A DNA stretch of 64,000 bases from a virus (Duplodnaviria > Heunggongvirae > Uroviricota > Caudoviricetes): the IMG/VR virus record IMGVR_UViG_3300027851_000011; one strand, given 5' to 3'. Positions 8,652-64,000 of this stretch are shown here, one piece after another. Under the pieces are notes generated by a model. The model saw only the letters and a program-made list of their open reading frames with translations. It did no database searches and was not told where the DNA came from. Every line of letters starts with the position of its first letter. Within the stretch, counting starts at the first letter, position 1. A program made the position numbers and the translations under genes.

Positions 8652-8821
8652 AGAACGGTCGTGAGGTGTTCCACTTCGACTCACCTAAGGAGGCATACGA
8701 CTACGCCAACAAGCTGCGCGAACGCCTCTCAGTGGACGACAAGATCCGCTGCATGGTCTCAGCTGAAGGGCATCGTGTGATCCTCGCACATCGCGCATCG
8801 CAGAAAGACAAGAATGCCTGA
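8594..8821 (+). CDS. Hypothetical small protein
   Basis: 75 aa ORF overlapping the upstream gene end. Start is uncertain. Confidence 0.3.
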   Translation: MGSAVAGAYSRIDCLFSYLKNGREVFHFDSPKEAYDYANKLRERLSVDDKIRCMVSAEGHRVILAHRASQKDKNA

Positions 8822-9638
8822 AACAACCGAACCCGAGCTGCTCGACGACAAAAACGTCGACATCACGGAAAAGGACATCAAGGAAGCGCTCAAGGAACCG
8901 AGTAACTTCGCCTACTTCAAGTCGCGTGGCGAAGAGAAGATGTTCGACACCTGGGCACTCGGCCCGGTGATCCGCACACGGGATTCCGAATGCATCCAGC
9001 AGTCGAACGCCCGTGTGCTCATCAAGAAGCTGGAAAGCGACCCGACGCTCAAGGACGACTGGAGGATCACTGGATGCAGCCACTGGGCGTGCGGCTGGGT
9101 CGACCACCTGTCATTCCGTGCCGTCGAGGATGTCGATCCTGAGATCGTGAAGCAGATCGAGGTGCTCGACCGCCTCATCGAGACGCTCGAAAGCACCAGC
9201 AGCTCAGACGACCGGGCGATGGAGACCATCGTCCTCGAATCCCAGAGCACCGTCTGGAACGAGCTGCATTCGCTTGTGACACAGGTTCGCGAACGTCGCG
9301 AGGCCCTCGCTGAGACGCCACGCAAGCCGACGCGCATCTTCCGCTTCATCAAAGGCTGGTTCGACGGTCTCCGTGACTACGGGATCGCAGACGACGCAGA
9401 CTGCTCAGAACTCGCTGAAGAGCTGAGCCTCAAACACCTACCTTACATCTGCCGCAACTTACTCATCGACAATCCGCCCGAAGACTGGGCGAGTCAACTG
9501 TACACTGCACTCATCGAAGATGGCAACAACAGTACGATAGAAGAGCTTTACCCGAGCGAAGAGGAAGTACGTCCCCTCCTGAAAGAACTCGGCCTGCTCA
9601 AAGCAGATGAGGAAGAAGATGCCCCAGAGCCAGATTGA
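8814..9638 (+). CDS. Acidic hypothetical protein
   Basis: 274 aa, very acidic, overlaps the upstream stop. Confidence 0.45.
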   Translation: MPETTEPELLDDKNVDITEKDIKEALKEPSNFAYFKSRGEEKMFDTWALGPVIRTRDSECIQQSNARVLIKKLESDPTLKDDWRITGCSHWACGWVDHLSFRAVEDVDPEIVKQIEVLDRLIETLESTSSSDDRAMETIVLESQSTVWNELHSLVTQVRERREALAETPRKPTRIFRFIKGWFDGLRDYGIADDADCSELAEELSLKHLPYICRNLLIDNPPEDWASQLYTALIEDGNNSTIEELYPSEEEVRPLLKELGLLKADEEEDAPEPD

Positions 9639-12051: not shown

Positions 12052-12696
12052 ATGAAAGCTCTCCGTCTCGTTTCCAACCGCGTCGTGACTGCCGGTGATC
12101 CGCCCTTCGAGGGCTTCTTCACCCTAGAGATGGCTGAAGCTCTGATGCGCGATGATCCTGATCGGGCCATCGACATTATGACGAACCTGACGCCCAAGTC
12201 GGCGTCGCAGCTGATGACCATGATCCGCCTCGACAAGAAGCTGAAGGCCCGCTACGAGGAACTCGTCGCTCACTCGAATGCCAAGCGCCCGAAGCCGTCG
12301 AAGAATGCTCCGTTCAAAATCGAAGACATCCTCGACGAAGTTTTCGTCTTCTGCCCGCCCATCGCCTCGATTCTGTTCCTGACCGACGGGCGCCGACTGA
12401 TCCGTGAAGATCCTGACGACCTCGCTCAGACGATCACCGTCGCTGAGTACGAGAAGAAGTACGGTGAGACCGTGGACCTCGCGCTTGAGCGCATCCACGC
12501 GCAGAAGGTTGCGATCCTCGAACGTGCCATGTACCTGATGAAGGCACAGCCGCGCAAGATGGTCGTCAGCCTCGCCAACAGCGATGCTGTCTTCGACAAG
12601 ACTATCATCGCCTACGAACGCGACCAAGTCGGTGCGTTCGCCTCCCGCCTCAACACCACAGTCCTCGGCATCGAGGAAGAAGCACCAACCACATGA
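12052..12696 (+). CDS. Hypothetical protein
   Basis: 214 aa ORF. Confidence 0.45.
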   Translation: MKALRLVSNRVVTAGDPPFEGFFTLEMAEALMRDDPDRAIDIMTNLTPKSASQLMTMIRLDKKLKARYEELVAHSNAKRPKPSKNAPFKIEDILDEVFVFCPPIASILFLTDGRRLIREDPDDLAQTITVAEYEKKYGETVDLALERIHAQKVAILERAMYLMKAQPRKMVVSLANSDAVFDKTIIAYERDQVGAFASRLNTTVLGIEEEAPTT

Positions 12697-13760
12697 GCAA
12701 GATGAAGATCTACCACGCGGATCGCGACGTCGTCGCGAACGACCGCGCGTCCTCCGCGATGGCCGCCAACGGCCCGCAGTCTCCCTTCAATGGCGTCGCG
12801 CGTGATGCGCGCGGCACCCACACCGCTGCCGAGGTCATGGAGAAGTCCAACCTCGACTGGCGCGTCGATCAGCACGAGCTGTTCACCAAGGACGGCATCG
12901 CGATCCCCACGCACAAGGCCCTGCTGCGCAGCGACACCAACGCGCTGCTGGGCGTGGTGGGCGACGGCTACACCCCGCTCCAGAACGCCGAGGCATTCAG
13001 CTTCGCTGACAGCCTCGTCGACACCGGCCGCATGGAGTTCCTGAGCGCTGGCCAGTTCAGCGACGGCAAGCGCATCTTCATCCAGTGCAAGCTGAACGAC
13101 AAGGACGGCGGCCTGGGCGCGACCGAGATCGCTCCAGGTGATACGGTGCAGCCCTACTTCCTGCTCGCCAACGGCCACGACGGCTCCCTGGCTGTGCGCG
13201 TCATGCTGACCAGCATCCGCGTGATCTGCCAGAACACCTTCGCTGCTGCGATCAGCCGCGACGGCAAGAAGCGCGAGACCAGCAGCTCGATCAAGCACAC
13301 CAGGAATCTCCAGGAGCGCCTGGAAGCGACCCGCAGCCTGTTCACCTGGGCCGGTGAGACCTTCAACGAGTTCGTCAGCACCAGCCGCGTCCTGACCCGC
13401 AAGCAGGTCGGCAGCGAGACCATCCTGAAGAACTACTTCCGCAGCGTCTTCGATGTCGAGGGCGACGCCGATACCTTCAGCACGCAGCTGAAGAACCGTG
13501 AGGAACGCCTCATCGAGCTGTTCCAGGTCGGCTACGGCAATGCCGAGAAGAGCGTGCGCGGCAGCTACTGGGCTGCGGCCAACGCGGTCACCCAGTACCT
13601 CACCCACGAGAGCCGCACGGCAATCAAGGGCGTGGACACCAAGAAGATCGGCCAGGACGAGCGCGTCACGCTGGAGCGTGCCAAGCGCCTGGAGAGCAGC
13701 CTCTTCGGCGGCAACCAGCGCATCACCGAGCGCGCCCTTCAGCTCGCCATCGCGTCGTAA
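12693..13760 (+). CDS. DUF932-like phage/plasmid protein
   Basis: LLANGHDGSLAVRVMLTSIRVICQNT matches the N(S/G)HDGS...RxVCxN signature recalled for DUF932 (TIGR03299). The antisense 595-aa ORF is a shadow. Confidence 0.5.
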   Translation: MSKMKIYHADRDVVANDRASSAMAANGPQSPFNGVARDARGTHTAAEVMEKSNLDWRVDQHELFTKDGIAIPTHKALLRSDTNALLGVVGDGYTPLQNAEAFSFADSLVDTGRMEFLSAGQFSDGKRIFIQCKLNDKDGGLGATEIAPGDTVQPYFLLANGHDGSLAVRVMLTSIRVICQNTFAAAISRDGKKRETSSSIKHTRNLQERLEATRSLFTWAGETFNEFVSTSRVLTRKQVGSETILKNYFRSVFDVEGDADTFSTQLKNREERLIELFQVGYGNAEKSVRGSYWAAANAVTQYLTHESRTAIKGVDTKKIGQDERVTLERAKRLESSLFGGNQRITERALQLAIAS

Positions 13761-20154: not shown

Positions 20155-22437
20155 ATGCTGACTGAACCGACCACGGTGCAAACCGTGGCCTCGGTCACGT
20201 GCGCCCGTCGGCGCTACGCGACCGAGGGACCACTGTCGACGCTGATTCCAGTCTTCGTCGACGTTGAAACGTACATGAATGAGCGACGCGGCATCTCGCT
20301 GTCGTCGATGACGCTCAGGCAGTACATCAAGAACAGCTATCTCACGTCAATCGCTGTTGCCATTGCAGACAGCGCGACTGAGGTGTGGCTGACGCCGAAC
20401 GGTGAGGCGCCCAAAGACCTCATCGCGCTACTCACTGAGCTGGCTAAGGACCCGCGCTACGTCTTCGTCTGTCACAATGCGGCCTTCGACATTCGTGTGC
20501 TCCGCTTCATGCTGGGCATCCCGCAGCCGAAGAACGTGTGGTGCACCGTCGAGGGCGCTATGGGTGCGTGGCCTGAGTGCGTTGGTGGCTACAGCCTGAA
20601 GGCGCTCGGCGCGTTCCTTCAGCTTCCTGTCCACATGCTGAAGATCGACGTCGAAGAGGCTTTTGGCAAGACGCTGGAGCAGCTGACTGGTGCCGAAATG
20701 GCCCAGTACAACACCCGCGACGTCGATTCGATGCGAGAGATCTACTACTACCAGATCGCCTGCCTCTCTGCACGGGAGCAGGAGATCGCACTGATGACGC
20801 ACCACGTCCGTCAGTTCAACTTCGTCGTAGATCCAGATGCGCTCGTGAAGCTCATTGAGAAGCTGGACTTGAATGCCAACGATGCTCAGGAGAACGCGTC
20901 CGAACTGCTCTCTATGGAGCAGCTCGCAGAAGTGTTCAACCGCAACACGGGCGACGGGTCCCTCCGTTCCGTACGTGTTCAGCGCCTGAGCAAGCTCATC
21001 ACCGAGAAGTGGAACGTCACGCTTCCGACGACGAGCCTGAAGAAGCTCAGCCCGATCCTCCAGGCCAAGTACCCGGAGGTGACGAACCTGCTGAAGCAGA
21101 CCAGCCGTGCCAACAAGATGATCAGCCACGGTCGTCGATCCAAGATCTTCCGTGGCGTTCCTGAAGTCGACGTTGAGCTTGGCTTTGCCCGTGCTCACAC
21201 GTTCCGCTTCAGCTCTCCATCATCTGGCAAGGGCCTGAACCTGCACAACGTGCCGAAGCACGACAAGTCGGTTGCTGAACCGATCCGTCGCGTGTTCCGC
21301 ATGCCGCCAGACAAGTGTCTGGTGCGTGGTGACCTCGCGAACGTCGAGTTCCGCGTCGAAGGATGGCTGACGGACTCCAAGAATGTGTTCAAGATGTTCG
21401 ACCCTGCCCTTGGCGGCGACATCAACAACGATCCGTACTGCATGACGTGGAAGGCCATGACGTCGATCGCGATCACCAAGAAGGATCCCGTTCGTCAGGT
21501 CGCCAAGTCTGCTGTGCTCGGCCTCGGCTACTGCATGGGTGCCGCAGGCTACGCAAACGTCCTACTGGGCGTTCTCGCGGACAAGAAGAGCAAGGTGACT
21601 GAAGAGAAGTTGAATGAGATGCGTCTGTCTCTTGGGTGGGAGAAGAGCAAGCGGCTCAACTACATCATGGAGAAGACCAACTGCACCGAGATTACAGCTC
21701 TCGCTGCATATCACATTCACCGTCTGTTCAACGAAGCGTACCCCGAGTACACCCGCGTGGCTGATTGGCTGCTCCGCTTGGTTGAGAACGTCTCTGCGTG
21801 CGGCGACAGTGCTGCCAACGCACAGTACGAAATCGACCGGATGTACCAGTCGCACTATGCTCCTGATCGAAACAAGATCGGCATCGAACTCGATCCCGAC
21901 GAAACAACAGGAGTTAGCCTTCGCGTTCGTTGTGGCCCGTGGACTCCGACGGTGTGCTGGCGTCAGCCGCTCGTCCGTTCGATCTTCACGAACAACCACT
22001 CGGAACCAAGGCTCACCATCCTCAAGGCGACCGGCGAAGAGAAGCCGTTCACCAAGCAGCTCGCGATTGAGAACGTCACCCAGTCGGCAGCGCGCAACGC
22101 GCTCTGCTACGGGCTTCTCGAACTCAAGAAGCGCGGCGTCGTGGACATCCTGCACATCCACGACGAAGTCATGATCATCACCGATCGGAAGCGTGAGGCT
22201 GTGCTCCAGGCACGGCAGCACCTCATCGACGTCTTCGGGCCTGGGAACAACCACCCGATGAACTGGGCTATCCTCATCAAGCCTGAAGAGATCACGGTCA
22301 CCGAGTCCATGTACGAAGACGAGATGGACGTCGCTGTGCCCAAGCTGAACAAAGAAACCGGAAAGATGTCCGAAGGCAACGATCGCTGGGGTAAGATCCT
22401 GCGCAACGAGCCCGACATGTTCCTCAACCTCACCTGA
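20155..22437 (+). CDS. Family A DNA polymerase with N-terminal 3'-5' proofreading exonuclease domain
   Basis: Exo motifs FVDVETY and HNAAFD. Pol motif A DLANVEFRV, motif B RQVAKSAVLGLGYCMG, motif C LHIHDEV. Confidence 0.8.
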   Translation: MLTEPTTVQTVASVTCARRRYATEGPLSTLIPVFVDVETYMNERRGISLSSMTLRQYIKNSYLTSIAVAIADSATEVWLTPNGEAPKDLIALLTELAKDPRYVFVCHNAAFDIRVLRFMLGIPQPKNVWCTVEGAMGAWPECVGGYSLKALGAFLQLPVHMLKIDVEEAFGKTLEQLTGAEMAQYNTRDVDSMREIYYYQIACLSAREQEIALMTHHVRQFNFVVDPDALVKLIEKLDLNANDAQENASELLSMEQLAEVFNRNTGDGSLRSVRVQRLSKLITEKWNVTLPTTSLKKLSPILQAKYPEVTNLLKQTSRANKMISHGRRSKIFRGVPEVDVELGFARAHTFRFSSPSSGKGLNLHNVPKHDKSVAEPIRRVFRMPPDKCLVRGDLANVEFRVEGWLTDSKNVFKMFDPALGGDINNDPYCMTWKAMTSIAITKKDPVRQVAKSAVLGLGYCMGAAGYANVLLGVLADKKSKVTEEKLNEMRLSLGWEKSKRLNYIMEKTNCTEITALAAYHIHRLFNEAYPEYTRVADWLLRLVENVSACGDSAANAQYEIDRMYQSHYAPDRNKIGIELDPDETTGVSLRVRCGPWTPTVCWRQPLVRSIFTNNHSEPRLTILKATGEEKPFTKQLAIENVTQSAARNALCYGLLELKKRGVVDILHIHDEVMIITDRKREAVLQARQHLIDVFGPGNNHPMNWAILIKPEEITVTESMYEDEMDVAVPKLNKETGKMSEGNDRWGKILRNEPDMFLNLT

Positions 22438-25281: not shown

Positions 25282-27195
25282 ATGGGACTACCGGCTATCA
25301 TGATCGACCCGCATCGGGCTTGGCCCGAGGTGCCGTCGAAGATTCAGAGCTGTCAGGATGCCACGAGGCCGGTAGCTGTTCTCACCCTGTACGCGGCGTA
25401 CCTGCTGTCAGGTACGCCGCTGACAGGGCCGGCAGCTGACTACCCGATGGAGACGCTCACGCAGAAGCTCGAAGAGGGCTGCAAGGAACACGGCGTCGAT
25501 GTGCAGCGGGTGCTCGACTGGGCCGAATCCATCAACCTCGAATACACGACCATGACCGACCCGCTCGGTCTCGTGCCGTCGTTCCTCGAATACAAGGGCT
25601 TCACGCTCCGACCGTACCAGCACGAGTCCGCAGTCTGGTCGGCATCCAGGCTTGGCTCGATCCTGGCGCTCTCCTGTGGCGTCGGCAAGACGCTCACGGC
25701 GACCGCAGCGGCCATCGGTGCCGCCAAACTGGGCAAGTGCAGCACTGACCGCTGCTACATCTTCGCGCCGCTCAATGCCATGGGGACTTGGGAATCCTAC
25801 TGCGCTGATCTGCGCACGGTCTACAAGGACGTGAAGATTCTGTCGATCGACAGCGCACACCGCTGGACTGGGCTGCCTCGCCATCTTGGTGGCGCCATGA
25901 TCATCGACGAGCTGCACAACACGAAGGGCGAAGAGCGCCGCCGCTCGCAAGCGATAGCCAAAATCCGTGCAGCCTTCCAGTGGTGCGTCGGCCTCACTGG
26001 CACGCTGCTCCATGCAGGCCCCGAAGGCATCCTCCAGGTGCAGGACATTGTTCTGCCCGGTTCATCCCGCTTCTTCGATAAGTGGGCATTCGGCGATGCC
26101 TTCAACTGCATTGTCGAGACGAAGTTCGGCAGGCAGAAGAAGAAGTCCCTCGTCATCCCGCCCGCAGATAAGCAGGGACCGTTCTGTAGCTACATGGCTC
26201 GGTTCGTGAAGTCGCTGTCCGAGTCGTCGCCCGACGTCGCCGACGTTCTCAAGCTGCCCGGTCTGACGTCTATCGGCGTCGACACCTGGGAAGAGCCCAA
26301 GTGGATCACCGATCTCCGGGCTACCATGCTCAAAGAGAACAGTGACAACCGCGTCTGGTGGCCTGGGAACCTCACAGGCAACGCTGCTCGTCTCTATATC
26401 GGTGCTTTCACGCTCGCCCTCGCTCAGCAGATCGAGGACACCGAAGAGCCCGACAGTGAACCGACGGAAGCTGAGAAGGCCGAAGCAGAACAGTACCGTG
26501 CTGACGCTGGCATTCCGCTTGGCGTTGAAGGCGAAGGCGGTCCTGAGCTGCCGTCGCTGGCCCGCGTGCTGAGCGCGCTCCGCAAGGAAGGCATCTACGA
26601 TCGTTGCATCGTCAAGACTCTGAAGTCTGACGGCATGCCGCACTACGAGTTCCGGTACGCCAACAACGACCCGCTCGCGCCACCGATCGGCCCGAAGATC
26701 ACGTGGGTGCTCAACTGGCTGCGGGATAACCCGGATGAGCCGCTCGTCGTCGCTGCCTACCACAAGGAGACTGTTCAGCTCATCTCTGACCAGTTCACCA
26801 AGCTCGGCATCAAACACCGCATCATCCGTGGCGGGACACCGCGACAGGATCGCAAGACGTTCATCGCCGATTTCCAGGAAGGGCGTGCTCGCGTGATGCT
26901 CATGCAGCAGCGCGCTGGCTCCGAATCCATCGAACTCACACGCGCTGCGAACTCCATGCTCGTCGAGCATGCGTGGATTCCGGCGACCTACACGCAGTTC
27001 ATGGCTCGTACGTATCGCGGAGGCCAAGAGCGGCCCTGCAACCACTACGACCTCATGTTCGGCGAGTTCCAACTGCACATGGTCCGCAAGCTGATCCGTG
27101 GCGAGGGCTTCGACGCCGCCGTCCGTCAGCAGCTGGAGAACATGTGGAAGTTCCAGACCACCGTCCATAACGCCGTCCTTGGCGTAGAAGGATAG
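25282..27195 (+). CDS. Superfamily-2 helicase, SNF2-like
   Basis: Motif I SCGVGKTLT, motif II IIDELHN, motif VI QFMARTYRGGQ. Confidence 0.65.
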   Translation: MGLPAIMIDPHRAWPEVPSKIQSCQDATRPVAVLTLYAAYLLSGTPLTGPAADYPMETLTQKLEEGCKEHGVDVQRVLDWAESINLEYTTMTDPLGLVPSFLEYKGFTLRPYQHESAVWSASRLGSILALSCGVGKTLTATAAAIGAAKLGKCSTDRCYIFAPLNAMGTWESYCADLRTVYKDVKILSIDSAHRWTGLPRHLGGAMIIDELHNTKGEERRRSQAIAKIRAAFQWCVGLTGTLLHAGPEGILQVQDIVLPGSSRFFDKWAFGDAFNCIVETKFGRQKKKSLVIPPADKQGPFCSYMARFVKSLSESSPDVADVLKLPGLTSIGVDTWEEPKWITDLRATMLKENSDNRVWWPGNLTGNAARLYIGAFTLALAQQIEDTEEPDSEPTEAEKAEAEQYRADAGIPLGVEGEGGPELPSLARVLSALRKEGIYDRCIVKTLKSDGMPHYEFRYANNDPLAPPIGPKITWVLNWLRDNPDEPLVVAAYHKETVQLISDQFTKLGIKHRIIRGGTPRQDRKTFIADFQEGRARVMLMQQRAGSESIELTRAANSMLVEHAWIPATYTQFMARTYRGGQERPCNHYDLMFGEFQLHMVRKLIRGEGFDAAVRQQLENMWKFQTTVHNAVLGVEG

Positions 27196-31285: not shown

Positions 31286-31435
31286 CCCGTGGCTACGAAC
31301 AGAGGCCCAGACGGGCGCTTCAAGTCGGGGGCCAACTGGCCCTTCGACGAAGGCCCTGTGCGGCGATCGCCGCCACGGCCACCACAACCACCTGAGCCGC
31401 CACCCTGGCGGCCTCATCGTCCCGAAAGGACACCC

Positions 31436-32719
31436 ATGGAACTGTCAGGCAAGGCCCTCATCTTCATCATTGGAGTCATACTCTCCATCATCGCCGCGTT
31501 CGTGGTGACCACGAACATGTACGAGTACGTCGATGCGGGTACTTACCACATCACCCAGTCCCCGTTCGGCAGCTCAGTGCGTGCACAGATGCAGCCCGGA
31601 TCGTACCAGCAGAACTTCCACAACATCACGGTGTGGCCTGTCGGCGAGTCCTACGAGTTCACCGATCCTGACAAGGACGGCCCGCAGGACGATCGCATCA
31701 CCGTCACCTTCAATGACGGTGCGACCGCTCAGCTGTCCGGCACCATCCGCATCGACCTTCCCCGTTCGGAGAAGGAAGCTGTGGATCTCGTCGTGGATCA
31801 CGGCTTCCGCACGTTCGATCAGCTCGAATCCAAGCTGATTCTGCGGTCACTGCGCAACGCGCTGAACATGACGGCCAACCTGATGAGCAGCCGCGACTCG
31901 TACAGCGAGCGCCGTGCTGACTTCCTCCGGCTGGCAAAGGATCAGATCGAGAACGGCGTCTACGTCACCAAGGACGAAGCCGTCAAGGAGACCGATCCCG
32001 TCAGCGGCCAGGAAGTCACCAGGATCAAGAAGGTCCCGGTGGTCGACAAGGACGGCAAGCCGCAGCGCGAACCGAGCCCGTTCACCCAGTTCGGCCTCCG
32101 TGCCTACGGCCTGGAGATCAAGGACTGGCACTACGAGGAACGCGTCGTCAACCAGATGAAGGCCCAGCAGGAAGCCGTGATGGCTGTTCAGACCGCGAAG
32201 GCCAAGAGCCTTCAGGCCGAGCAGGAAGCCAAGACCATCAAGGCACAGGGCGAGGCCAAGGTGATGACGGTCAAGTACGAAGCCGAGCAGGTGAAGGAGA
32301 AGGATACGGTCAACGCACAGCGTGAAGCCGCCGTCGCCAACATCGCTGCTCAGAAGGAAGTCGACGTCGCCAAGCTCGGTGCCGAGCAGGCCAAGGTCAA
32401 GGGCGAGCAGCTCAAGATGGTCGCGCAGTTGGAACTGGATGCTGCGAAGCTCCAGGCCGCTCGCACGCTGGAGCTGGCGCAGGCCGAAGCCAAGAGCCGC
32501 GAGCTGATCCTCGCTGCTGACGGCGCGCTCGACAAGAAGCTCGAAGCATTCAAGGATGTGAACGCGAAGTGGGCTGACGCCTATGCTCGCCAGAACGTCC
32601 CTGGTGTGATGATGGGCGGTGCTGGCCGTGACAGCGCTGCAACGGTGATGGACTTCATCGGCATCAAGGCAGCCAAGGAGATGGCCCTCGATCCGCACGT
32701 CCAGGCGCCGAAGAAGTAA
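31436..32719 (+). CDS. SPFH/band-7 (prohibitin/flotillin/HflKC-like) membrane protein
   Basis: N-terminal TMD ALIFIIGVILSIIAAFVV, then a globular domain and a long Ala/Glu/Lys-rich coiled coil. The Pro-rich N-terminal extension in ORF 31289 is probably not translated. Confidence 0.55.
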   Translation: MELSGKALIFIIGVILSIIAAFVVTTNMYEYVDAGTYHITQSPFGSSVRAQMQPGSYQQNFHNITVWPVGESYEFTDPDKDGPQDDRITVTFNDGATAQLSGTIRIDLPRSEKEAVDLVVDHGFRTFDQLESKLILRSLRNALNMTANLMSSRDSYSERRADFLRLAKDQIENGVYVTKDEAVKETDPVSGQEVTRIKKVPVVDKDGKPQREPSPFTQFGLRAYGLEIKDWHYEERVVNQMKAQQEAVMAVQTAKAKSLQAEQEAKTIKAQGEAKVMTVKYEAEQVKEKDTVNAQREAAVANIAAQKEVDVAKLGAEQAKVKGEQLKMVAQLELDAAKLQAARTLELAQAEAKSRELILAADGALDKKLEAFKDVNAKWADAYARQNVPGVMMGGAGRDSAATVMDFIGIKAAKEMALDPHVQAPKK

Positions 32720-36129: not shown

Positions 36130-36473
36130 ACATCGACCATCCCGTGGTCGAAACGCTCGTCGACACGCTGCTCACCATCAAGGTGACGGCTGACCGAGCG
36201 CCGAGCCACGTGCCATACGTGAAAGCCTTCTCGAAGAAGGCAGAAGAAGCCATCGCTGCCTATCGCGCCGAGCGCGACAAGGTCAATGGCGCCAAGGTCC
36301 GCACATCGAAGGAGTTGATCGACGGTCTCCAGAACCTCGTCAATGCCTTCGACACCGCTGCCCATCTCGTGAAGCTGGGCGGTTCCAACGAAGAGGCTGC
36401 GCTCTTCAAGCTCGATCAACAAACCCTCATCGGAATCATCCGAGAACTGAAGGTCCATCATGGGCTCGGATGA
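36117..36473 (+). CDS. Hypothetical protein
   Basis: 118 aa ORF. Confidence 0.4.
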   Translation: MLRLNIDHPVVETLVDTLLTIKVTADRAPSHVPYVKAFSKKAEEAIAAYRAERDKVNGAKVRTSKELIDGLQNLVNAFDTAAHLVKLGGSNEEAALFKLDQQTLIGIIRELKVHHGLG

Positions 36474-37233
36474 GGACGAGAAAGCGAAGAACGAACGACT
36501 TCTCCAGAAGCTGCGTGAGTATGGGACGAAGCATCCGATGCAGCGTCCTGCTGATCCTCTTCCGTATTTCAGTGAAAAGCTATATATCGAGTACATCGTT
36601 CCGAAGCTGAAGCAGTGGTTCACGGTCTATACACAGGTGAATGCCTTCCACTACTCTGGCCGTAGCTTGAGGTACGATCTGCTCGTCATTCCGACCGACG
36701 AGGCCGTCGGTCGTGTTTGCCAGTTTCCTTGGTTCGTCATCGAGACGAAGTTAGACATCTACAACAACAAATACAAGGAAATCAGCGAAGCATACATGCA
36801 GGCGTACGAGTACCGTAACACGGTTGTCAACGACACGCGATTCGTTGGCACTCCGCTTCATGGCGTTCGCCCACCAGCAGTCATGCTGTGCTCTGACATA
36901 ACGGGCAGGCTCTTCAAAGACGAAGGGCGCCGTGAGTGGGACTGGATCAGCCGGACATTCGGACGACGCGGTGTGTACTCGTTCTACGTCGACGACGCCA
37001 CAGCTATGGCTTTCACGCACCATGGTCACGTCTTCAACTACATGGGACAGCGACTCTGTAACATGAAGAATCATTCTGCCCTCCGCTTTAGCGGCGGGAT
37101 AGCTGACTGGTCCTCGTTCAAGTTACTTCTGACGTCAGACGGAGAATACCGAGAGATGACGGAAGAACTCATGACCATTGCTCGTGAAACGCAGAAACCA
37201 CCCGAAACCCCCGATGCCTGTCTAGGCAGTTAG
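36460..37233 (+). CDS. PD-(D/E)xK-like nuclease candidate in a low-GC stretch
   Basis: DLLVIPTDE...FVIETKL fits the D...ExK core. Codon usage is visibly AT-richer (aaa, tta, ata codons) than its neighbours. Confidence 0.45.
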   Translation: MGSDEDEKAKNERLLQKLREYGTKHPMQRPADPLPYFSEKLYIEYIVPKLKQWFTVYTQVNAFHYSGRSLRYDLLVIPTDEAVGRVCQFPWFVIETKLDIYNNKYKEISEAYMQAYEYRNTVVNDTRFVGTPLHGVRPPAVMLCSDITGRLFKDEGRREWDWISRTFGRRGVYSFYVDDATAMAFTHHGHVFNYMGQRLCNMKNHSALRFSGGIADWSSFKLLLTSDGEYREMTEELMTIARETQKPPETPDACLGS

Positions 37234-40162: not shown

Positions 40163-41422
40163 ATGGTCGATGTCATGCCGGACAAGGTCGTCATCGTGTG
40201 CGTGAGCACTGAGGCGACCTCAACGTCTAAGAACAACAGCAACAAGTTCCATAAGTGGGAGAAGCAGGCCGACGGCCAGTTCCTCCACAGCTATGGACGC
40301 GTCGGTGACCCCGGCGTCACGCATCTCGTCAGCGAGAGCAAGGCACGCGCGAAGCTGAAGAGCGCGCTGAAGGACGGCTACAAGGAGGTGGCGATCGCTG
40401 GTGCAGAGCCAGCACAGCCGCAGACCAAGGGCGCTGCTACGGCGAAGACCGCCGTCGACGAGATCGCTAAAGGCGATCCGACCATCGCCAAGCTGGTTAC
40501 CTTCCTCAGCGAGCAGAACGTCCACAACATCTCGTCGGCTACTACGCTGAAGTACGACAAGGTGTCGGGCCTGTTCAGCACGCCGCTCGGCATCGTCAGC
40601 CAGGACTCGATCGACGAAGCACGCGAGCGTCTCGCGGAGATTCAGCATGTGCTGACAGCGCCGGGTATGGTAGTGGAAGCTGATGTCAACAAGCTGGCTG
40701 CTGCCTACATGATGCTCATCCCGACGGACATAGGCCGTGACCGGCCGACGTTCAATCGGATGTTTCCGAACCTCGACGCTGTGCAGAAGCAGAACGACAT
40801 CCTCGAATCCCTCGAAGGTTCGCTGGAGATGGCTGCCAAGCCAGTGAAGAGCAAGAAGGCACCGAAGGCACCTCGCGTGTGGGACATTGACATCAAGAAG
40901 ATGCTCGACACGACCGAGATCGAGCGCATCCGCACCAAGTTCAAGAAGACCTACGAGTACGGACGCCCCGACATGGATGTTCGCAACGTCTACGACGTGA
41001 CGATCAACCATATGAAGAAGGCGTTCGACAAGGAGGGCAAGAAGATCGGCAACGTCGAAGAGATGTGGCACGGCACCAGCGTCGGCAACGTCCTCTCCAT
41101 CTTCGCCAAGGGCCTCATCATCCCTGCCCACTGCTCGAACGGTCGCAACTTTGGCAACGGCGTCTATGCCAGCCGCCAGAGCCACAAGAGCATGAGCTAC
41201 GCCGGGCAGTTCCGCTCGTCGGTTCGTCGCAGCTGCTACATGTTCCTGGTCGAAGTCGCGATGGGCAAGGGCTTCATCCCGAAGTCCCGCGTCCAGAGCC
41301 CGCCTGCGGGCTACGATTCTGTCGACGTCGTCCCAGGCGCCGCCGGATTCAGCGCGCATGAAGCGATCGTCTACAAGACGAGCCAGACCAACGTGGTTCG
41401 TCTGATCGAGTTCGCTGCGTGA
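40163..41422 (+). CDS. PARP-family ADP-ribosyltransferase with N-terminal WGR domain
   Basis: WGR region KWEKQADGQFLHSYGRVGDPG. Catalytic H-Y-E elements MWHGTSVGNVLSIFAKGL, GNGVYASRQSHKSMSYA and YMFLVEVAMG. Confidence 0.7.
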   Translation: MVDVMPDKVVIVCVSTEATSTSKNNSNKFHKWEKQADGQFLHSYGRVGDPGVTHLVSESKARAKLKSALKDGYKEVAIAGAEPAQPQTKGAATAKTAVDEIAKGDPTIAKLVTFLSEQNVHNISSATTLKYDKVSGLFSTPLGIVSQDSIDEARERLAEIQHVLTAPGMVVEADVNKLAAAYMMLIPTDIGRDRPTFNRMFPNLDAVQKQNDILESLEGSLEMAAKPVKSKKAPKAPRVWDIDIKKMLDTTEIERIRTKFKKTYEYGRPDMDVRNVYDVTINHMKKAFDKEGKKIGNVEEMWHGTSVGNVLSIFAKGLIIPAHCSNGRNFGNGVYASRQSHKSMSYAGQFRSSVRRSCYMFLVEVAMGKGFIPKSRVQSPPAGYDSVDVVPGAAGFSAHEAIVYKTSQTNVVRLIEFAA

Positions 41423-41718: not shown

Positions 41719-41842
41719 TGACTGGGACATCGACTGGAACGGCCCGAACGAGTGCGAGATCACCCACCCCAACCTAGCGTCCGGCTTCAAGGCAAAACTT
41801 CGCCCTGACGACTGGCCGATCACGAACGGAGAACCAGCATGA
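41612..41842 (+). CDS. Hypothetical small protein
   Basis: MLLVIYQHSGSKYVSKENATQQDLANW... within ORF 41573..41842. Confidence 0.35.
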   Translation: MLLVIYQHSGSKYVSKENATQQDLANWISRKTKDDDDWDIDWNGPNECEITHPNLASGFKAKLRPDDWPITNGEPA

Positions 41843-43218
41843 GTACTTCATCACCAGCGTCAGACGCACCGCTACTGAACTCGGTGCTACAGAAACTGCT
41901 CGATTCGTCGGGCGACGCGAACCTCGATCTCGTGGCATCGACATTCGGGCTTCCCCGGATGTCCGAGATGCCGCGACCCGGACTCGTCAGGGCCTGGGAC
42001 TTCGACGAGTGGAAGGCATGGGCAGAACCGTACGGCCTCGTGGAACTGCCGAGAACAACGCACAGCTACGTGCTGTGCCACCCGAAGCTGAAGATGCTTC
42101 GCGTCGCCATGTCCTCGTCGACCGGCGATGTGAAGTCACGACTCAACCTCGGAAGTGACGTCAGGCAGGCATTCCGATTCGAATACTCACGTATCGCAAA
42201 CTACTGCTGCCACCTCGTCGACAGGTACATCCAGAGGCACGAGGATCGCACTGCGTTCAACAACGAGCAGGAGATCATGCTCGCACTCCGAGACGAGGTG
42301 CTGGAGACCCGTCACACCGACAAGTATTCGGAGCGGCCAGATGGCAAGGACGCTCGTGATCGTATCGAAGCCGTCGAAGACCTGATCGGAGCGCCGAAGG
42401 CCAAAGCCGCGTCGCTGAAGCGGCTGCTGATGAAGGCATCGGACGTCACAGGCCAGCCAGCACGAAGTGTCGTGAAACGGCTCGTGGCTCTGTCGATGTC
42501 TGACATCGACGCAGGCGATCCAGCGTCACGCGAGAAAGTCGCTGAGCGTGTCTACAAGGTCATCATCGACGAACTCGGTGTGCGGCACTCGTCGTGCGAG
42601 CTGTTCATGGATGCCCTGAAGGACATCATCGAGACCCACGAGGCCATCGAAGAAGAACAGAAGCGAGCCAAACTCGAAGCTCGTGAAGCTGCGCGTGCCG
42701 AGCGTCAGAAGGTCAGCAAGCAAGATGCGCAGGCTCTCGTCACTGACGATCCTGCTGCCTTCGCCAAGGCCATGGCTGACATCCGTGGATCGTTCCTGAA
42801 GCATACCGGGCCGCTGCTGACTACGATGAACGAGGCAATGACGCAAGTGCGAGCACTCGCCGAGCACTCGGCGAGCTTCCCGTCGCCGTCGTACCCAACA
42901 GCCAAGCTGGCTGAACTCGGGACTGCCAACGCCATGCTGTTCGAGAGGGCGTCGTCCCTCGAAGACCAGCTCGAAGACATGAAGACCGCCAAGGATGCGG
43001 TCGATGTCGAACTGAAGCGGCTGAAGGATGAGCACGCCATTGCAGAGCAAATGCTTGCCGAAGCCGGCACGCACTCTGACTGGCGAGGCGCATACGCCGA
43101 ACTTGTCACCACGCTGGACGCTGCTCTCGCGAGCAGTGACTTCCTCCAGCTGGCTGTCGGTGTGCAAACAGCACGGCAGGCCCTTGTCGCTGCCAAAGCA
43201 AAGATCGCGCAGTCATGA
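41839..43218 (+). CDS. Coiled-coil hypothetical protein (459 aa)
   Basis: Long ORF whose C-terminal half is helical and charged. Confidence 0.45.
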   Translation: MSTSSPASDAPLLNSVLQKLLDSSGDANLDLVASTFGLPRMSEMPRPGLVRAWDFDEWKAWAEPYGLVELPRTTHSYVLCHPKLKMLRVAMSSSTGDVKSRLNLGSDVRQAFRFEYSRIANYCCHLVDRYIQRHEDRTAFNNEQEIMLALRDEVLETRHTDKYSERPDGKDARDRIEAVEDLIGAPKAKAASLKRLLMKASDVTGQPARSVVKRLVALSMSDIDAGDPASREKVAERVYKVIIDELGVRHSSCELFMDALKDIIETHEAIEEEQKRAKLEAREAARAERQKVSKQDAQALVTDDPAAFAKAMADIRGSFLKHTGPLLTTMNEAMTQVRALAEHSASFPSPSYPTAKLAELGTANAMLFERASSLEDQLEDMKTAKDAVDVELKRLKDEHAIAEQMLAEAGTHSDWRGAYAELVTTLDAALASSDFLQLAVGVQTARQALVAAKAKIAQS

Positions 43219-59975: not shown

Positions 59976-60627
59976 CATGCTGTCGACGCTCCAGGCAAAG
60001 CAGAGCGAACACGCGGCTAAGGTCCAGCTCAACATGGCCACGCTCGCCCGCCGGGCAGCGGTCCTGGACGAGCGGTACAAGGCACTCGCGCCGTTCATCG
60101 ACGAGTTCAACGATCTGCGCTACGAGCTGAAGAGCACGGTGGCGCTCGACACCTACTGCCACCTCAACCGTGTGGTGTGCAACAACGGCGCACCGCTGGA
60201 GCTGCGCTCGTACCTGCTCTGGGATCCGGCACCGTGTGAAGGATGCTCGGTGTCGCTGTACGTCGTGTACAATAGCCTCGATGCCATCCAGGACAGCCTC
60301 GCGGCCAATCACCCGGAGATCTTCACTGGGATGCCGAAGTTCATGTCGGTCGAACAGACCCGCATGATCCTGAAGAAGATGTACGAGACGACAAAGCACA
60401 TGGTGATGTCGTCGAAGTTCTCCAAGCGGCTGTTCTCAATCGAAACGGATGGTCGCTTCAAGCACTGGGAGGACTATCGCAAGCTCGAACCGACGTTCTT
60501 CCCCGACGAGGCGATGAACTGGGTCGCTGACGAACTGTTCCGGCACATGATCCTGCGGCCAGATCCGCAGGCTGTTGCCAGCGGCGATGCCATGCTCGCA
60601 GGCAAGGGTCGCCGGAAGAAGTCGTGA
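59968..60627 (+). CDS. Hypothetical protein
   Basis: In-frame ATG overlapping the upstream stop, giving MGSMLSTLQAK... Confidence 0.45.
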   Translation: MGSMLSTLQAKQSEHAAKVQLNMATLARRAAVLDERYKALAPFIDEFNDLRYELKSTVALDTYCHLNRVVCNNGAPLELRSYLLWDPAPCEGCSVSLYVVYNSLDAIQDSLAANHPEIFTGMPKFMSVEQTRMILKKMYETTKHMVMSSKFSKRLFSIETDGRFKHWEDYRKLEPTFFPDEAMNWVADELFRHMILRPDPQAVASGDAMLAGKGRRKKS

Positions 60628-60869
60628 GGTGCTGCGACTGCGATGCCGATGTTGGTGACCCCGACATCGGCGACCCACACCAGGGCGGCACACCTGTAGC
60701 TATCGGCTGCGTGGTGTGCCGCTCGTGCCTCGAAGAACGAAACCGTCGTGATCGTGCGCGTCTCGAAGCTGAGGAAGCAGAGGACGCGCGCAACCAGTTC
60801 ACCATCAACTTCGGCGGGACCACCGTTCTCTGCGATGACAGAGACGACACGCCGGCACACCTGGAGTAG
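60624..60869 (+). CDS. Small zinc-ribbon protein
   Basis: CCDCDAD...CVVCRSC. Confidence 0.4.
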   Translation: MRCCDCDADVGDPDIGDPHQGGTPVAIGCVVCRSCLEERNRRDRARLEAEEAEDARNQFTINFGGTTVLCDDRDDTPAHLE

Positions 60870-60872
60870 CAC

Positions 60873-61118
60873 ATGGACCTCGAAGATCCCGATGCCCGTG
60901 ACCGTGAAACCAAAGCGGCAGGGCTCATCAAAGGCGTGAGCGCCTGCAATCGCCGCGCCTGCCAGACCCCGCTGACCGTCGGCCTGCGGTGGTTCAACGT
61001 GTCGACGCGACAGTGGTACTGCGCGTCATGCGCCCGGCGCATCAACGACCCGTTCAACAACACAGAACAGATCTGCTTTCCCGAAGGGAGCGTTCCATGC
61101 CATCAGGCCCAGCAGTAG
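60873..61118 (+). CDS. Small zinc-ribbon protein
   Basis: CNRRAC...CASCARR. Confidence 0.4.
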   Translation: MDLEDPDARDRETKAAGLIKGVSACNRRACQTPLTVGLRWFNVSTRQWYCASCARRINDPFNNTEQICFPEGSVPCHQAQQ

Positions 61119-61345
61119 AAGAAGAGTACTGCAATGTCACCTTCGACATCTCGCAGAAGTCGACAACCCACCTGTCCATCACGTGCAAAGTCCCGGTGTC
61201 TGTCGCGCAGAAGGGCGACGATGCCGTGGCGCGCTGGCTGAAGCGCAATGACTGGAAGGACGACGAACAGGAGGTCACTGAGACCACCTATGGCTCGTAC
61301 GACTTCAAGACCCTGCACGTCACGTACAACGAGAAGGCACCATGA
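61097..61345 (+). CDS. Hypothetical small protein
   Basis: MPSGPAVEEEYCNVTF... Confidence 0.35.
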   Translation: MPSGPAVEEEYCNVTFDISQKSTTHLSITCKVPVSVAQKGDDAVARWLKRNDWKDDEQEVTETTYGSYDFKTLHVTYNEKAP

Positions 61346-61629
61346 GCGACGAAATCACGTTCGACGAGGCCGTGAAGCTGCTCCAGAAAGCCGACGTCGT
61401 TGTCATCTACCCGCAGAACGATGCACCGACCAAAGCCGACTTCGTCGGCTGGGAAGAAGAGGGCAACGAGAACTCGGACTTCATCGTTGGTGCCGACGGC
61501 TTCGACGATCTGTACATCTGCCGTCCAAAGCAGGATGGCGATGATCCGATTGTCGGAACCTTCGTTGCAGGGCGCCTGTTCACAGCCGGGAACTGCCCGA
61601 TCGGGCTCTACGTGAAGATGGAGCGCTGA
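61342..61629 (+). CDS. Hypothetical small protein
   Basis: 95 aa ORF. Confidence 0.4.
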   Translation: MSDEITFDEAVKLLQKADVVVIYPQNDAPTKADFVGWEEEGNENSDFIVGADGFDDLYICRPKQDGDDPIVGTFVAGRLFTAGNCPIGLYVKMER

Positions 61630-61631
61630 TC

Positions 61632-61883
61632 ATGAGCGCGTCTGATGCACAGAAATGTACGACAGACGAGCTGATCACTGAGCTGTCTCGTCGAGGTGTC
61701 CAGCTTGTTGCGCGCGTCCCCGGATTCGACGGGCACATCGTAACACCGCCCGGATCGCCGCTCGGATCCGTGACAGTCAGTGGTCCAGATGGCTTGAAAC
61801 TCTTCGAACACATCAACAACAGCCCGTCAGCGATCGACGTTGGCACTGTGAAAGGAGCACTCGATGCCAAAGTTCCGAGTTGA
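61632..61883 (+). CDS. Hypothetical small protein
   Basis: 83 aa ORF. Confidence 0.4.
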   Translation: MSASDAQKCTTDELITELSRRGVQLVARVPGFDGHIVTPPGSPLGSVTVSGPDGLKLFEHINNSPSAIDVGTVKGALDAKVPS

Positions 61884-62052
61884 GATGACCACGCTCGCAC
61901 GCATGCGTGGCTTCATCATCGTCGATGCTGACGACGCGTGCCACGCCGAAGACAAAGCCCTCGAACGCGCAGGAGACGTGTCCTGGAAGTACGAGGGCAC
62001 CTGTGATAGTCACGACGGCCCGCAGGTTCACCACGTCAACCAAGAAGGATAG
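61864..62052 (+). CDS. Hypothetical small protein
   Basis: 62 aa ORF. Confidence 0.35.
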   Translation: MPKFRVEMTTLARMRGFIIVDADDACHAEDKALERAGDVSWKYEGTCDSHDGPQVHHVNQEG

Positions 62053-62056
62053 GACT

Positions 62057-62368
62057 GTGCCACAAATACCAACGGTACGAATCCAGTACCAGCGGCTGAC
62101 GGACCAGATCAAGTCGATTGCGAATCTTCGCGATAGCATTGCGAAGGTTCCAGTAGCCCCAGAAGACAAAGAGGCATCGGACAGCGCCATCGAGTCTCTC
62201 GAATACGCGCAGGCGTTCATGACGAGCATCCTGCTCCATGCCGTTGGTGCTCTGACAAACGAGCACGGCGTCGAAGAAGAGAAGGCTGCCGTTGCAGCCT
62301 GGATGGCAGCACAGAAGCCCACAGGGCAGCTCATGCTGCGTCCTGTTTCTGTTGTCATCACACCCTAG
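62057..62368 (+). CDS. Hypothetical protein
   Basis: GTG start within ORF 61907..62368. Confidence 0.35.
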   Translation: MPQIPTVRIQYQRLTDQIKSIANLRDSIAKVPVAPEDKEASDSAIESLEYAQAFMTSILLHAVGALTNEHGVEEEKAAVAAWMAAQKPTGQLMLRPVSVVITP

Positions 62369-62496
62369 CCCATCACCTCACACCGAGGTTGCCAAGAGAA
62401 CAGACCGGAGCTTAGACCCCGGCGCGTCGCGGCAGTAAGTGGGAACACGCAAGAAGTTGCTGGCCTCTTTCGGACGAAAGTCCAAAGGAGCCAGTC

Positions 62497-63159
62497 ATGG
62501 CTGATTACGTTCTGTACATCCAACACGTCTACGGCAATGCCACTGACAACCACCTCGCACTGCGCGCGGCGGCAAAGAAGACGGAAGACCCGCTTCAGCG
62601 TAAGTGGCTGAACCCGTGGAAGATCCCGACCGAGATCCTGACGAAATGCGGCGGCCTCATGGTCGACCGCGAGTTCGTCGCCCGTCAGCGCGGCCACGGT
62701 GACTGGAGCTACAGCTCTGGTCGCTCTGGCTACGGCTGCCGTGGTTGGATCGAAGTCGAGATCGAGGTCGACGATCTGTCGGTGTCGCACACCGAACTCG
62801 ATCTCTCGATCGACAACAAGTGGAGCCTCTGGTCTCGCTGGGGCCTTGATGGCGGTTACGACTTCGTCGAGCCACTGTTCAAGTGCATGCCCATCGGATC
62901 AGTGATCCACACGCGACTCGCCTGCTGGAAGGAAATCCGGTACGGGTCGTTCAACATCTTCCGCAACAAGAGCGGATGGCACTGTGCTGGCGAGATGCAC
63001 ACCTGCTGGGACGACGATTCGATGACGGAGCACTGCTTCGACTGGAATCGCCGAGCTGTGAAGCACGTCATGAAGCAACTGGATCACGAAGAAGACCACC
63101 TGCTGAAGATGGACGCGCATCGGTCGAAGACCGAACCCATGGTCGAAGACGACGAATAA
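62497..63159 (+). CDS. Hypothetical Trp/Cys-containing protein
   Basis: 220 aa, preceded by a 125-bp intergenic region and RBS AAGGAGCC. Confidence 0.45.
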   Translation: MADYVLYIQHVYGNATDNHLALRAAAKKTEDPLQRKWLNPWKIPTEILTKCGGLMVDREFVARQRGHGDWSYSSGRSGYGCRGWIEVEIEVDDLSVSHTELDLSIDNKWSLWSRWGLDGGYDFVEPLFKCMPIGSVIHTRLACWKEIRYGSFNIFRNKSGWHCAGEMHTCWDDDSMTEHCFDWNRRAVKHVMKQLDHEEDHLLKMDAHRSKTEPMVEDDE

Positions 63160-63172
63160 CCACTAACAACAT

Positions 63173-63198
63173 CCTGCGGCAGTGAACGCTGCCGCAGG
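63173..63198 (+). terminator. GC-rich hairpin downstream of the 62497 gene
   Basis: CCTGCGGCAG-tgaacg-CTGCCGCAGG. Confidence 0.35.
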
Positions 63199-63214
63199 GC
63201 ATTGAAAGGACCAC

Positions 63215-64000
63215 ATGAAGACGCCGAGACCACACCAGAAAGAAGCCATCGAGGCTGTCGTGAACGGGTTCAAAGCCCACAACCGAGGCAAGCTCATCAT
63301 GGCTTGCGGAACTGGCAAGACGCTCGTCGCGAACTGGGTTCGGGAGGGACTGTCGGCTGTACGAACCATCGTTTTTGTTCCGTCGATAGCGCTGATAGCA
63401 CAAACGATACGTGAATGGACAGCTGCATGCTCAGATAACTTCGAGGCACTGGCTGTTTGTTGTGACGCGACAGTAGCCGATTCAGGAACGTCGACAGTCG
63501 ACGGCGACGAAGATGAATCAACAGCTAATGTGGAAGCTGCTGTCACTACTGATTATCGTTCCATATCGGCGTTCCTTCAGAAGCCTGGGCATCGTGTCGT
63601 CTTCTCGACGTATCAATCATCAGAGACTGTAGCAGAGGCACTTAGCCTTGCTGGTACTCCGCAGTGTGATCTAGTAATCGCAGATGAAGCACACAGAACG
63701 GCTGGAGCACTCGGCGGCCTATTCACTACTGTTCTCGACGACAACCGAGTTCCATCGGTGCATAAGTTGTTCATGACTGCAACGCCACGGCTGTATCATG
63801 AAAACTCAGATACTCCAATAGCTTCGATGGATGACGAGAAACTATATGGTCCTGAGTTCCATCGTCTTGATCTCGCAGATGCAGTAGCCCGTGGACTTTT
63901 GTCAGACTACGAGATTCTCATAGTATTTGCCACGACGAAAGAGGCCAGGGACCTCCTGAAGAAGAATCCGCGTCTACGCGTTCGTGATCGCGCATTACAG
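63215..64000 (+). CDS. Superfamily-2 DEAH helicase, 5' portion, running off the window end; low-GC composition
   Basis: Not in the ORF track because no stop falls within the window. Translation gives MKTPRPHQKEAIEAV... with motif I MACGTGKT, motif II DLVIADEAHR and motif III LFMTATP. Local GC is clearly lower. Confidence 0.6.
   Translation, partial: MKTPRPHQKEAIEAVVNGFKAHNRGKLIMACGTGKTLVANWVREGLSAVRTIVFVPSIALIAQTIREWTAACSDNFEALAVCCDATVADSGTSTVDGDEDESTANVEAAVTTDYRSISAFLQKPGHRVVFSTYQSSETVAEALSLAGTPQCDLVIADEAHRTAGALGGLFTTVLDDNRVPSVHKLFMTATPRLYHENSDTPIASMDDEKLYGPEFHRLDLADAVARGLLSDYEILIVFATTKEARDLLKKNPRLRVRDRALQ

Follow-up and report, generated by a model that had tools for sequence, protein, structure and literature searches.

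A lower-GC gene for a nuclease-less, Type ISP-like putative translocase within the mosaic accessory region of a ~200 kb uncultivated phage

Genes and features of the helicase locus

The window referred to below is the whole stretch of phage DNA analysed, 64,000 nt in length. Sequence past its right-hand edge was taken from the ENA assembly ERZ27247451 (contig k141_1839023, 200,766 bp), which was located through the protein of the gene upstream of the helicase and in which the window occupies positions 131075-195074. The portion read was the last 69.7 kb of this 200.8 kb contig, and the locus L001 supplies the part past the window, up to where the contig ends, with 52496 being added to an L001 coordinate to give that of the window. 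The contig is phage-like, having nearly all of its genes on the same strand, many small ORFans, a family-A DNA polymerase and an SNF2-like helicase. The DNA polymerase of the window has only ~25% identity to that of any GenBank phage (the Liberibacter phages), while a megablast search with positions 60000-64000 gave no match to GenBank phages, and a 50-mer taken from the end of the window had no exact match in IMG/VR. No ortholog of the helicase described here was found in GenBank phages either, the best tblastn match being to Listeria phage fragments with 29% identity. The lineage is an uncultivated one, with a genome of ~200 kb and no cultured relative for a comparison of synteny.

The helicase gene opens close to the end of the window (Table 1). 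From the ATG at 63215-63217 its reading frame continues for 262 codons without a stop codon up to the window end, and this part of the protein matches the Pfam families ResIII (E-value 4.9e-20) and DEAD (E-value 5.9e-11), well above chance. The full protein matches ResIII (E-value 5.8e-19) and Helicase_C (E-value 5.9e-10), and its translation shows intact Walker A (GTGKT), DEAH, TATP, motif V and motif VI (QxxGRxxR) segments. A sequence-only reading of the window had reported an ORF starting at 63215 with the GTGKT, DEAH and TATP motifs and had proposed its classification by profiles; translation and the ResIII/DEAD matches bear this out, the protein being of the SF2 helicase type. The same reading had placed a hairpin at 63173-63198 ahead of the ORF, which is indeed present, one nucleotide longer at either end. 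A gene caller selected a later ATG (63299) as the helicase start, with which the Q-motif region is lost; the ATG at 63215, with its ribosome binding site, is the better start.

Table 1. Positions of features at the helicase locus, in window coordinates
Feature	Position	Strand	Details
Upstream neighbor	62497..63159	+	220-aa ORFan; GC3 0.78, native composition; stop codon 63157-63159
Hairpin	63172-63199	+	12-bp stem (10 Watson-Crick and 2 G-U pairs), 4-nt GAAC loop
Shine-Dalgarno-like GAAAGGA	63204-63210	+	4 nt 5' of ATG 63215; read from the sequence
Helicase gene	63215-65692 (window-equivalent; L001 10719-13196)	+	825 aa; 5' third inside the window
First ~46 helicase codons (Q-motif region and motif I)	63215..63352	+	GC3 0.74, native-like
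Motif I, GTGKT	63308-63322	+	Helicase aa 32-36
Low-GC helicase body (RecA1 lobe with DEAH and TATP)	63353..64000, continuing past the window to 65692	+	From translation, GC/GC3 and Pfam
Motif II, DEAH	63683-63694	+	Helicase aa 157-160
Motif III, TATP	63776-63787	+	Helicase aa 188-191

The hairpin, which is GC-rich (dG -24.7 kcal/mol, z -4.1 against shuffles), sits between the stop codon of the upstream gene and the helicase ribosome binding site, in the 55 nt of intergenic sequence which separate the two genes. As the + strand lacks a U-run (T-run) behind it, it does not qualify as a canonical intrinsic terminator of the + strand genes, and a consensus scan rated it as terminator-like on the - strand only. 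It was also considered as a possible repeated element, which was rejected, as it is present as a single copy with no second one within the window. The 220-aa product of the upstream gene had no match in Pfam, PHROG, NCBIfam or PADLOC and bears no resemblance to the Mrr nuclease domain (hhalign probability 6.7%).

At the other end of the helicase gene, its stop codon overlaps the start codon of the next gene (TAATG). Eight genes were called past it, all of normal composition, with seven lacking a Pfam match and one having a weak DnaJ domain; these downstream genes are phage ORFans of normal GC content. No methylase or nuclease genes were found in the 4 kb downstream or the 10 kb upstream of the helicase, and Pfam gave no methyltransferase match in the helicase or in the scanned downstream genes. 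Among the helicase neighbors, resemblance to an Mrr domain was absent, as were DISARM partner genes. There was also no Pfam match to the HTH/DUF1870 (Aca-like) domains in nine neighboring small genes (eight located upstream or immediately downstream and one ~3.3 kb downstream) or in the other downstream genes, it being noted that novel Acr and Aca proteins escape Pfam.

Motor domain, C-terminal tail and known relatives

The protein has three parts, namely a motor, a linker and a tail. Residues 1-435 form a complete SF2 motor (ResIII and Helicase_C) with the Q, I, II, III, V, and VI motifs all intact, and the ATPase motifs are invariant in an alignment of 50 homologs. The best PADLOC model for the protein was PDLC03597 (REase_MTase_IIG, a single-chain REase-MTase labeled Type IIG; E-value 8.5e-86), with the match restricted to positions 166-641 of the 1646 in the model. 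A phmmer search of the PDB identified the Type ISP enzymes LlaGI (E-value 2.3e-48) and LlaBIII (E-value 3.8e-48), with the next match at 8.6e-07, and identity between the phage motor and that of LlaGI is roughly 30%. An AlphaFold2 model was built from the 50-sequence alignment, in which pLDDT values of the motor are mostly 85-97. When searched with Foldseek, this model gave the entries 4xqk and 5ffj at the top, with LlaBIII (5.6e-25) as best match, together with LlaGI (1.7e-18), and XPB and RadD as runners-up at about 1e-10, which leaves the top match ahead by 14 orders of magnitude. By these homologies the motor is assigned to the Type ISP/COG4889 lineage.

Likeness to LlaGI and LlaBIII extends over both RecA lobes of the SF2 helicase-like ATPase, with all ATPase motifs being kept. 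However, the phage helicase is only about half the size of LlaGI (825 aa and ~1570 aa, respectively) and is devoid of the N-terminal Mrr (PD-(D/E)xK) nuclease, because its ORF begins, with the Q motif, where the nuclease of LlaBIII ends. No nuclease domain was identified in it, nor was there a Pfam match to Mrr_cat. It further lacks the coupler, the gamma-class N6-adenine methyltransferase and the TRD of these enzymes, the protein ending at aa 825 with a helical, HA-like tail of 390 aa in their place. According to PMC4666363, the Type ISP motor translocates on dsDNA using ATP; by analogy, the phage helicase is most likely an ATP-driven dsDNA translocase that does not unwind its substrate, a function which is considered putative.

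Type III Res and the DISARM proteins DrmD and DrmA share with the phage helicase the generic SF2 ResIII/Helicase_C fold. Unlike Type III Res, it has no Mod partner and no C-terminal PD-(D/E)xK nuclease, its C-terminus being helical and HA-like. Unlike DISARM, it is not part of a set of DrmA/DrmB/DrmC with either DrmD or DrmMI/MII, and its scores lie far below curated cut-offs, with 15.9 bits for the NCBIfam DrmD model (cut-off 610) and an E-value of 0.006 for the PADLOC DrmA model. In its working, the protein would be comparable to the motor module alone of the Type ISP enzymes. Its classification as a Type ISP RM enzyme, as Type III Res or as part of DISARM is rejected, the defining features of these having been searched for and not found. 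On its own, it is predicted to be incapable of DNA restriction or modification.

The motor is followed by a linker of low confidence in the model (aa ~436-490) and by a tail (aa ~490-825) predicted to be all-helical and fast-evolving. The C-terminal 390 aa had no Pfam match, even at E-values of up to 10 and with HA included. Among 1.84 billion representative proteins the tail matched just three, these being the helicase itself, its phage homolog P0124 and P0241, an HA-repeat protein (PF03457, E-value 1e-25), to five of whose repeats helicase residues 697-765 align. Its identity as HA was examined through this bridging protein and by profile-profile comparison. A profile of the tails of the phage clade aligned at aa 494-549 with an HA profile made from cellular homologs (hhalign probability 86%, E-value 5e-6), and two of the phage homologs (P0126 and P0127) have a Pfam HA domain at the position aligned with this first HA unit. 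A third, weak match to the HA profile lies at about aa 629-661. For the helicase alone, a custom HA HMM gave an insignificant match (iE 0.21) and single-sequence hhalign against HA a probability of 2%. The tail is best read as diverged HA (PF03457) repeats, with two units supported and more being plausible, a reading that is weak for the single protein. That HA domains have a structure pointing to DNA binding is indicated by the title of a 2013 paper by Mills et al., which PMC12191111 cites.

The nearest relatives of the helicase are seven proteins of 677-804 aa (P0122-P0128), which have 40-49% identity to it and are all without Mrr. Their genes lie within phage-like series of small ORFs sharing one strand, including contigs of 198 and 200 kb. 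In all, homologs were found in at least seven phage-like contigs, in which the helicase is also located alone among small ORFans. The architectures of the full-length homologs were obtained in a search with the complete 825-aa protein; with the 262-aa part as query, the matches listed did not exceed 458 aa. A scan of IMG/VR with the helicase alignment identified 80 loci, the best with 42% identity over the motor only and none in the jumbo-phage group, while scans with the upstream 220-aa protein and a downstream 310-aa protein provided no useful match.

A second tier of homologs is formed by a very large cellular family of proteins of ~1000-1250 aa, possessing Mrr_cat_2, the motor and multiple HA repeats. 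These are annotated as 'DEAD/DEAH box helicase / Helicase associated domain protein' and are frequent in Mycobacteriaceae and other Actinobacteria. Their motors have 45-47% identity to that of the phage helicase, and the order of domains after the motor is the same, with a conserved 'IADWFV.RV'-type segment and HA repeats, the latter being diverged in the phage protein. The differences are that Mrr_cat_2 is absent from the phage helicase and from all seven of its closest homologs in the phage clade, that the HA repeats of the phage helicase are too diverged for Pfam, and that the phage protein belongs to a separate, phage-only clade on the motor tree. In this tree (neighbor joining, no bootstrap) the nuclease-less phage proteins lie apart from the cellular Mrr forms, with the helicase being basal within the phage clade. 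The cellular proteins are standalone, having no methylase partner, and are found on mobile elements. Two were looked up; one is standalone in an island with ThsB-TIR, TIR/SEFIR, GmrSD and integrases adjoining, and the other, also standalone, is carried by a conjugative element that has TrwC and TraG.

Helicases of the COG4889+HA kind are reported in a 2026 bioRxiv preprint to be the most frequent non-Acr domain of acr-aca2 operons, and competition with host helicases is proposed there (10.64898/2026.07.27.740549). By description only, these resemble the phage helicase in their two modules (COG4889 and HA), in being encoded by MGEs and in being anti-defense candidates. In contrast to them, neither an Aca2/HTH regulator nor any known acr gene was detected in the neighborhood of the phage helicase. 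The helicase is considered, from its domains and its place on the tree, to be a new and divergent member of this already noted kind, representing a phage-only, nuclease-less branch of it.

Base composition and synteny

In windows of 200 nt, the GC content falls from 0.56-0.63 to 0.49-0.51 past about 63400. Over the 69.7 kb read, windows of gene size (2478 nt) have a mean GC content of 0.599 (sd 0.012). The window of this size starting at 63231 is the global minimum with 0.510, followed by one with 0.565, and at 0.510 the helicase itself lies 7 sd under the local mean. Its GC3 is 0.507, while the upstream gene has a GC3 of 0.78 and the five genes downstream have values of 0.68-0.87. The GC content is back to 0.57-0.61 within ~200 nt of the helicase stop codon, and the low-GC tract consists of the helicase gene alone, ending at its stop codon. 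The next lowest-GC long ORF of the window is situated at 36460-37233 (GC 0.531).

The compositional shift at the 5' side is intragenic and does not coincide with the start codon, GC3 being 0.74 in the first ~47 codons and 0.40-0.51 thereafter. The maximum-likelihood change point for GC3 is helicase codon 47 (permutation p about 0.03), and the difference between codons 1-45 and the rest has a p-value of 0.002 (Fisher). Such a step is absent in four of five orthologs, with GC3 in the fifth (L088) declining along the gene. These results lend moderate support to a 5' recombination junction, which may lie near codon 47 inside the conserved segment coding for motif I. The 3' junction is at the helicase stop codon, overlapping the next start.

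In related phages the gene has a different setting. Both flanks of the helicase are collinear among the loci L002, L003/L004/L005 and L087, and their copies (L002, L003, and L087) have 42-48% identity to the one described here. The orthologs have a GC content of 0.58 and a GC3 of 0.68-0.72, near to those of their flanks, in four of five cases (these three loci and L086), with L088 being lower (GC 0.542, GC3 0.575). In L002, L003, and L087 the helicase looks like a stable resident, and in this sister subclade it is located upstream of genes for Pyr_excise, DHHA1 and ThyX/ThyA, neighbors which are compatible with a role in DNA repair or metabolism. The helicase locus of our phage is not syntenic with that of the subclade, and homologs of the genes which follow the helicase there are found at positions 8814-9638 and 41839-43218 of the window. 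The overlap of the stop codon with the start of the next gene is common to this phage, L002 and the contig of P0122, in the latter case by gene calls.

The upstream 220-aa gene has homologs with 61-93% identity at four other loci (L089, L093, L094, and L095), at which it is followed by unrelated genes and never, within the sequence available, by the helicase. L089 has 90.6% nucleotide identity to the window, with similarity stopping at 63155, before the stop codon of the upstream gene and the hairpin; beyond this point it has unrelated genes of normal GC content. The upstream gene marks the left edge of a variable site, and the site itself is interpreted from these comparisons as a mosaic hot spot, with the helicase as its cargo.

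Origin and possible role of the helicase

Taken jointly, these findings make it probable that a putative dsDNA translocase belonging to a nuclease-less phage clade was acquired horizontally, as a single gene, in a mosaic accessory region. The incoming gene would have stemmed from a clade member of lower GC content and have arrived by itself. The role of its product may be in DNA repair or recombination, or in conflict between mobile elements. Its SF2 motor would hydrolyze ATP and translocate along dsDNA rather than unwinding it, with DNA contacts possibly being supplied by the HA repeats of the tail. No donor was identified (best identity 49%), and the evidence for a recent transfer thus consists of composition and lost synteny. 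A second, native copy of the helicase may be present elsewhere in the 200.8 kb contig, outside the last 69.7 kb read.

A rather unlikely alternative for the role of the gene is that of an anti-defense decoy, in which the phage version of a Mrr-helicase-HA enzyme of the host, lacking the nuclease, would blunt cleavage of phage DNA. It would do so in one of two ways, namely competition for the same DNA sites or partners or collision with a translocating host enzyme. The N-terminal Mrr nuclease of the cellular relatives and their location on mobile elements would agree with this, as would the lack of a nuclease in every member of the phage clade, the mosaic surroundings of the helicase with their small ORFans and the above-mentioned preprint on acr-aca2 operons. 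In addition, according to PMC3553963, for Type ISP enzymes a partner lacking the nuclease changes DNA cleavage after two translocating enzymes collide. However, neither an Aca-like HTH nor any known Acr gene adjoins the helicase (Pfam, nine small neighbors), and the model presupposes a host that carries the cellular enzyme. Moreover, the defense role of the cellular family is guilt by association from two cases, and the repair and nucleotide-metabolism neighbors in the sister subclade fit a role in DNA metabolism equally well. More broadly, large (~200 kb) phages might keep a clade of nuclease-less, Type ISP-like motors with hypervariable HA-repeat tails as mimics or decoys of host Mrr-helicase-HA enzymes, which might occupy the DNA entry sites of the latter or collide with them, thereby preventing double-strand breaks. 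Fast evolution of the tails and swapping of the gene between phages, as observed here, would then reflect an arms race, to which we give a small chance only.

It is also improbable that the gene is a vertically inherited housekeeping helicase (for replication, recombination or repair) which owes its low GC content to gene-specific constraint or drift. Homologs in at least seven phage-like contigs, three of them sharing synteny and native composition, the intact motifs and the same translational coupling by stop/start overlap as in L002 and the P0122 contig would be expected of such a gene. Against this, the GC3 of 0.51 contrasts with 0.68-0.87 in the neighbors and with 0.68-0.72 in four of five orthologs (0.575 in L088), synteny with the sister subclade is lost, and relatives of the upstream gene are not followed by a helicase. 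The window also encodes another SF2/SNF2-like helicase (25282-27195), which adjoins the DNA polymerase. Comparison with related phages, proposed in the sequence-only reading as a means of telling a conserved core gene from an acquired one, gave a divided answer: the helicase is resident, syntenic and of native GC content in the sister subclade, but foreign in composition and non-syntenic in this phage. It can be called a conserved core gene by half, while the genes downstream of it are ordinary and have normal GC content.

The sequence-only reading had itself put forward a further possibility, in which the helicase might open a horizontally acquired block past the window edge, such as a type III restriction res-like, DISARM-like or other helicase-nuclease module. 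Its observation that the gene is AT-richer than the genome background holds (GC content of 0.510 against a mean of 0.599, the lowest of the region), and this foreign composition is consistent with horizontal acquisition. The block itself is contradicted by the sequence past the edge, which was to be inspected: the low-GC tract ends with this one gene and its neighbors are ordinary, so it is a single-gene island followed by normal-GC ORFans. It is very unlikely that a multi-gene defense module begins here. The Pfam ResIII match, the foreign GC content and weak matches to DrmD, DrmA and Type I/III R-subunit models had spoken for one. However, low GC is limited to one gene, there is no methylase or nuclease among the eight downstream genes, no Mrr-like neighbor and no mod, methyltransferase or DISARM partner, the DrmD score is 15.9 bits against 610, and homologous phage loci carry the helicase alone among small ORFans. 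A metagenome assembly chimera, with foreign reads joined into the contig, is hardly credible despite the short-read k141 assembly and the abrupt compositional shift, as the frame is unbroken across the 5' compositional step, the stop codon overlaps the next ATG, and an identical protein (P0121) is present in JGI, Logan and ENA, in contigs of 200,781 bp and 200,766 bp, a small difference in length that points to at least two assemblies.

With regard to what these results mean for such phages, a suspected defense or anti-defense block can be struck off, as nothing past the window edge forms a system with the helicase. The preferred reading, acquisition of one gene, would make this locus a clear case in which one gene was exchanged, possibly with a junction in the segment coding for motif I, within the mosaic accessory region of an uncultivated phage lineage of ~200 kb. 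The analysis also documents what appears to be a phage-only, nuclease-less branch of COG4889/Type ISP motors, the HA-like tail of which evolves very fast. Should the Mrr-helicase-HA proteins of cells prove to be defense enzymes, the phage copies would be natural candidates for counter-defense.

Genomic surroundings of the edge helicase and its relatives

In L086, a related phage-like contig carrying an orthologue of the low-GC DEAH helicase found at the window edge, the helicase is directly followed by an oppositely oriented gene for an IS605 OrfB/TnpB protein, and a restriction-alleviation gene (Lar) lies 5 kb beyond it. Both genes suggest that mobile and anti-restriction cargo has a hot spot around the helicase. 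In L089, where a relative of the gene upstream of the helicase shares 90.6% nucleotide identity with its window counterpart, two unrelated genes of normal GC stand in place of the helicase, and neither has a homolog in the readable 69.7 kb of this phage. By eye, the product of the first of these has a winged-helix-like appearance.

The cellular Mrr-helicase-HA homolog on the Mycolicibacterium parafortuitum chromosome (L096, 1-6900) belongs to an uncharacterised family and is located directly 3′ of a ThsB-TIR, TIR_2/SEFIR, GmrSD_C and HIT gene cluster, with two integrases nearby, a defence-island type of setting.

A gene 1.2 kb 3′ of the edge helicase encodes a protein with a C-terminal DnaJ match, its score (27.8 bits) being exactly the Pfam cut-off.

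Features of the window, the source contig (L001) and related contigs
Feature	Location	Strand	Characteristics
DUF932 protein	window 12693-13760	+	phrog_1221
Family-A DNA polymerase	window 20155-22437	+	phrog_17
Second SF2/SNF2-like helicase	window 25282-27195	+	phrog_62, Helicase_C
SPFH/Band-7 domain protein	window 31289-32719	+	phrog_11908
Long ORF, 257 aa	window 36460-37233	+	GC 0.531, GC3 0.65
PARP-domain protein, 419 aa	window 40163-41422	+	PF00644, PF02877, phrog_23333
Phage protein, 310 aa	L001 14395-15327 (window-equivalent 66891-67823)		DnaJ (J-domain), Pfam
IS605 OrfB/TnpB	L086 10508-11716	-	Cas12f-like
Lar restriction alleviation	L086 15059-15514	+	
First gene at helicase position	L089 503-994		normal GC, unrelated
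Second gene at helicase position	L089 1037-1680		normal GC, unrelated

Replication and other window genes

The family-A DNA polymerase, with only ~25% identity to any GenBank phage polymerase, and the nearby SF2/SNF2-like helicase probably form a replication module; the edge helicase is therefore not the sole helicase in the genome. Phage genes of the window also include those for SPFH/Band-7 and DUF932 proteins. The 257-aa ORF has the second-lowest GC among long ORFs of the readable region, gave no Pfam match and may be one of the other low-GC genes mentioned in the sequence-only reading.

PARP-like protein

The 419-aa protein, labelled "polymerase" by PHROG, matches the PARP catalytic (E-value 3.6e-18) and regulatory (E-value 9.5e-10) domains and is encoded on a phage-like contig. 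A large phage with this eukaryote-type PARP architecture may merit a separate study.
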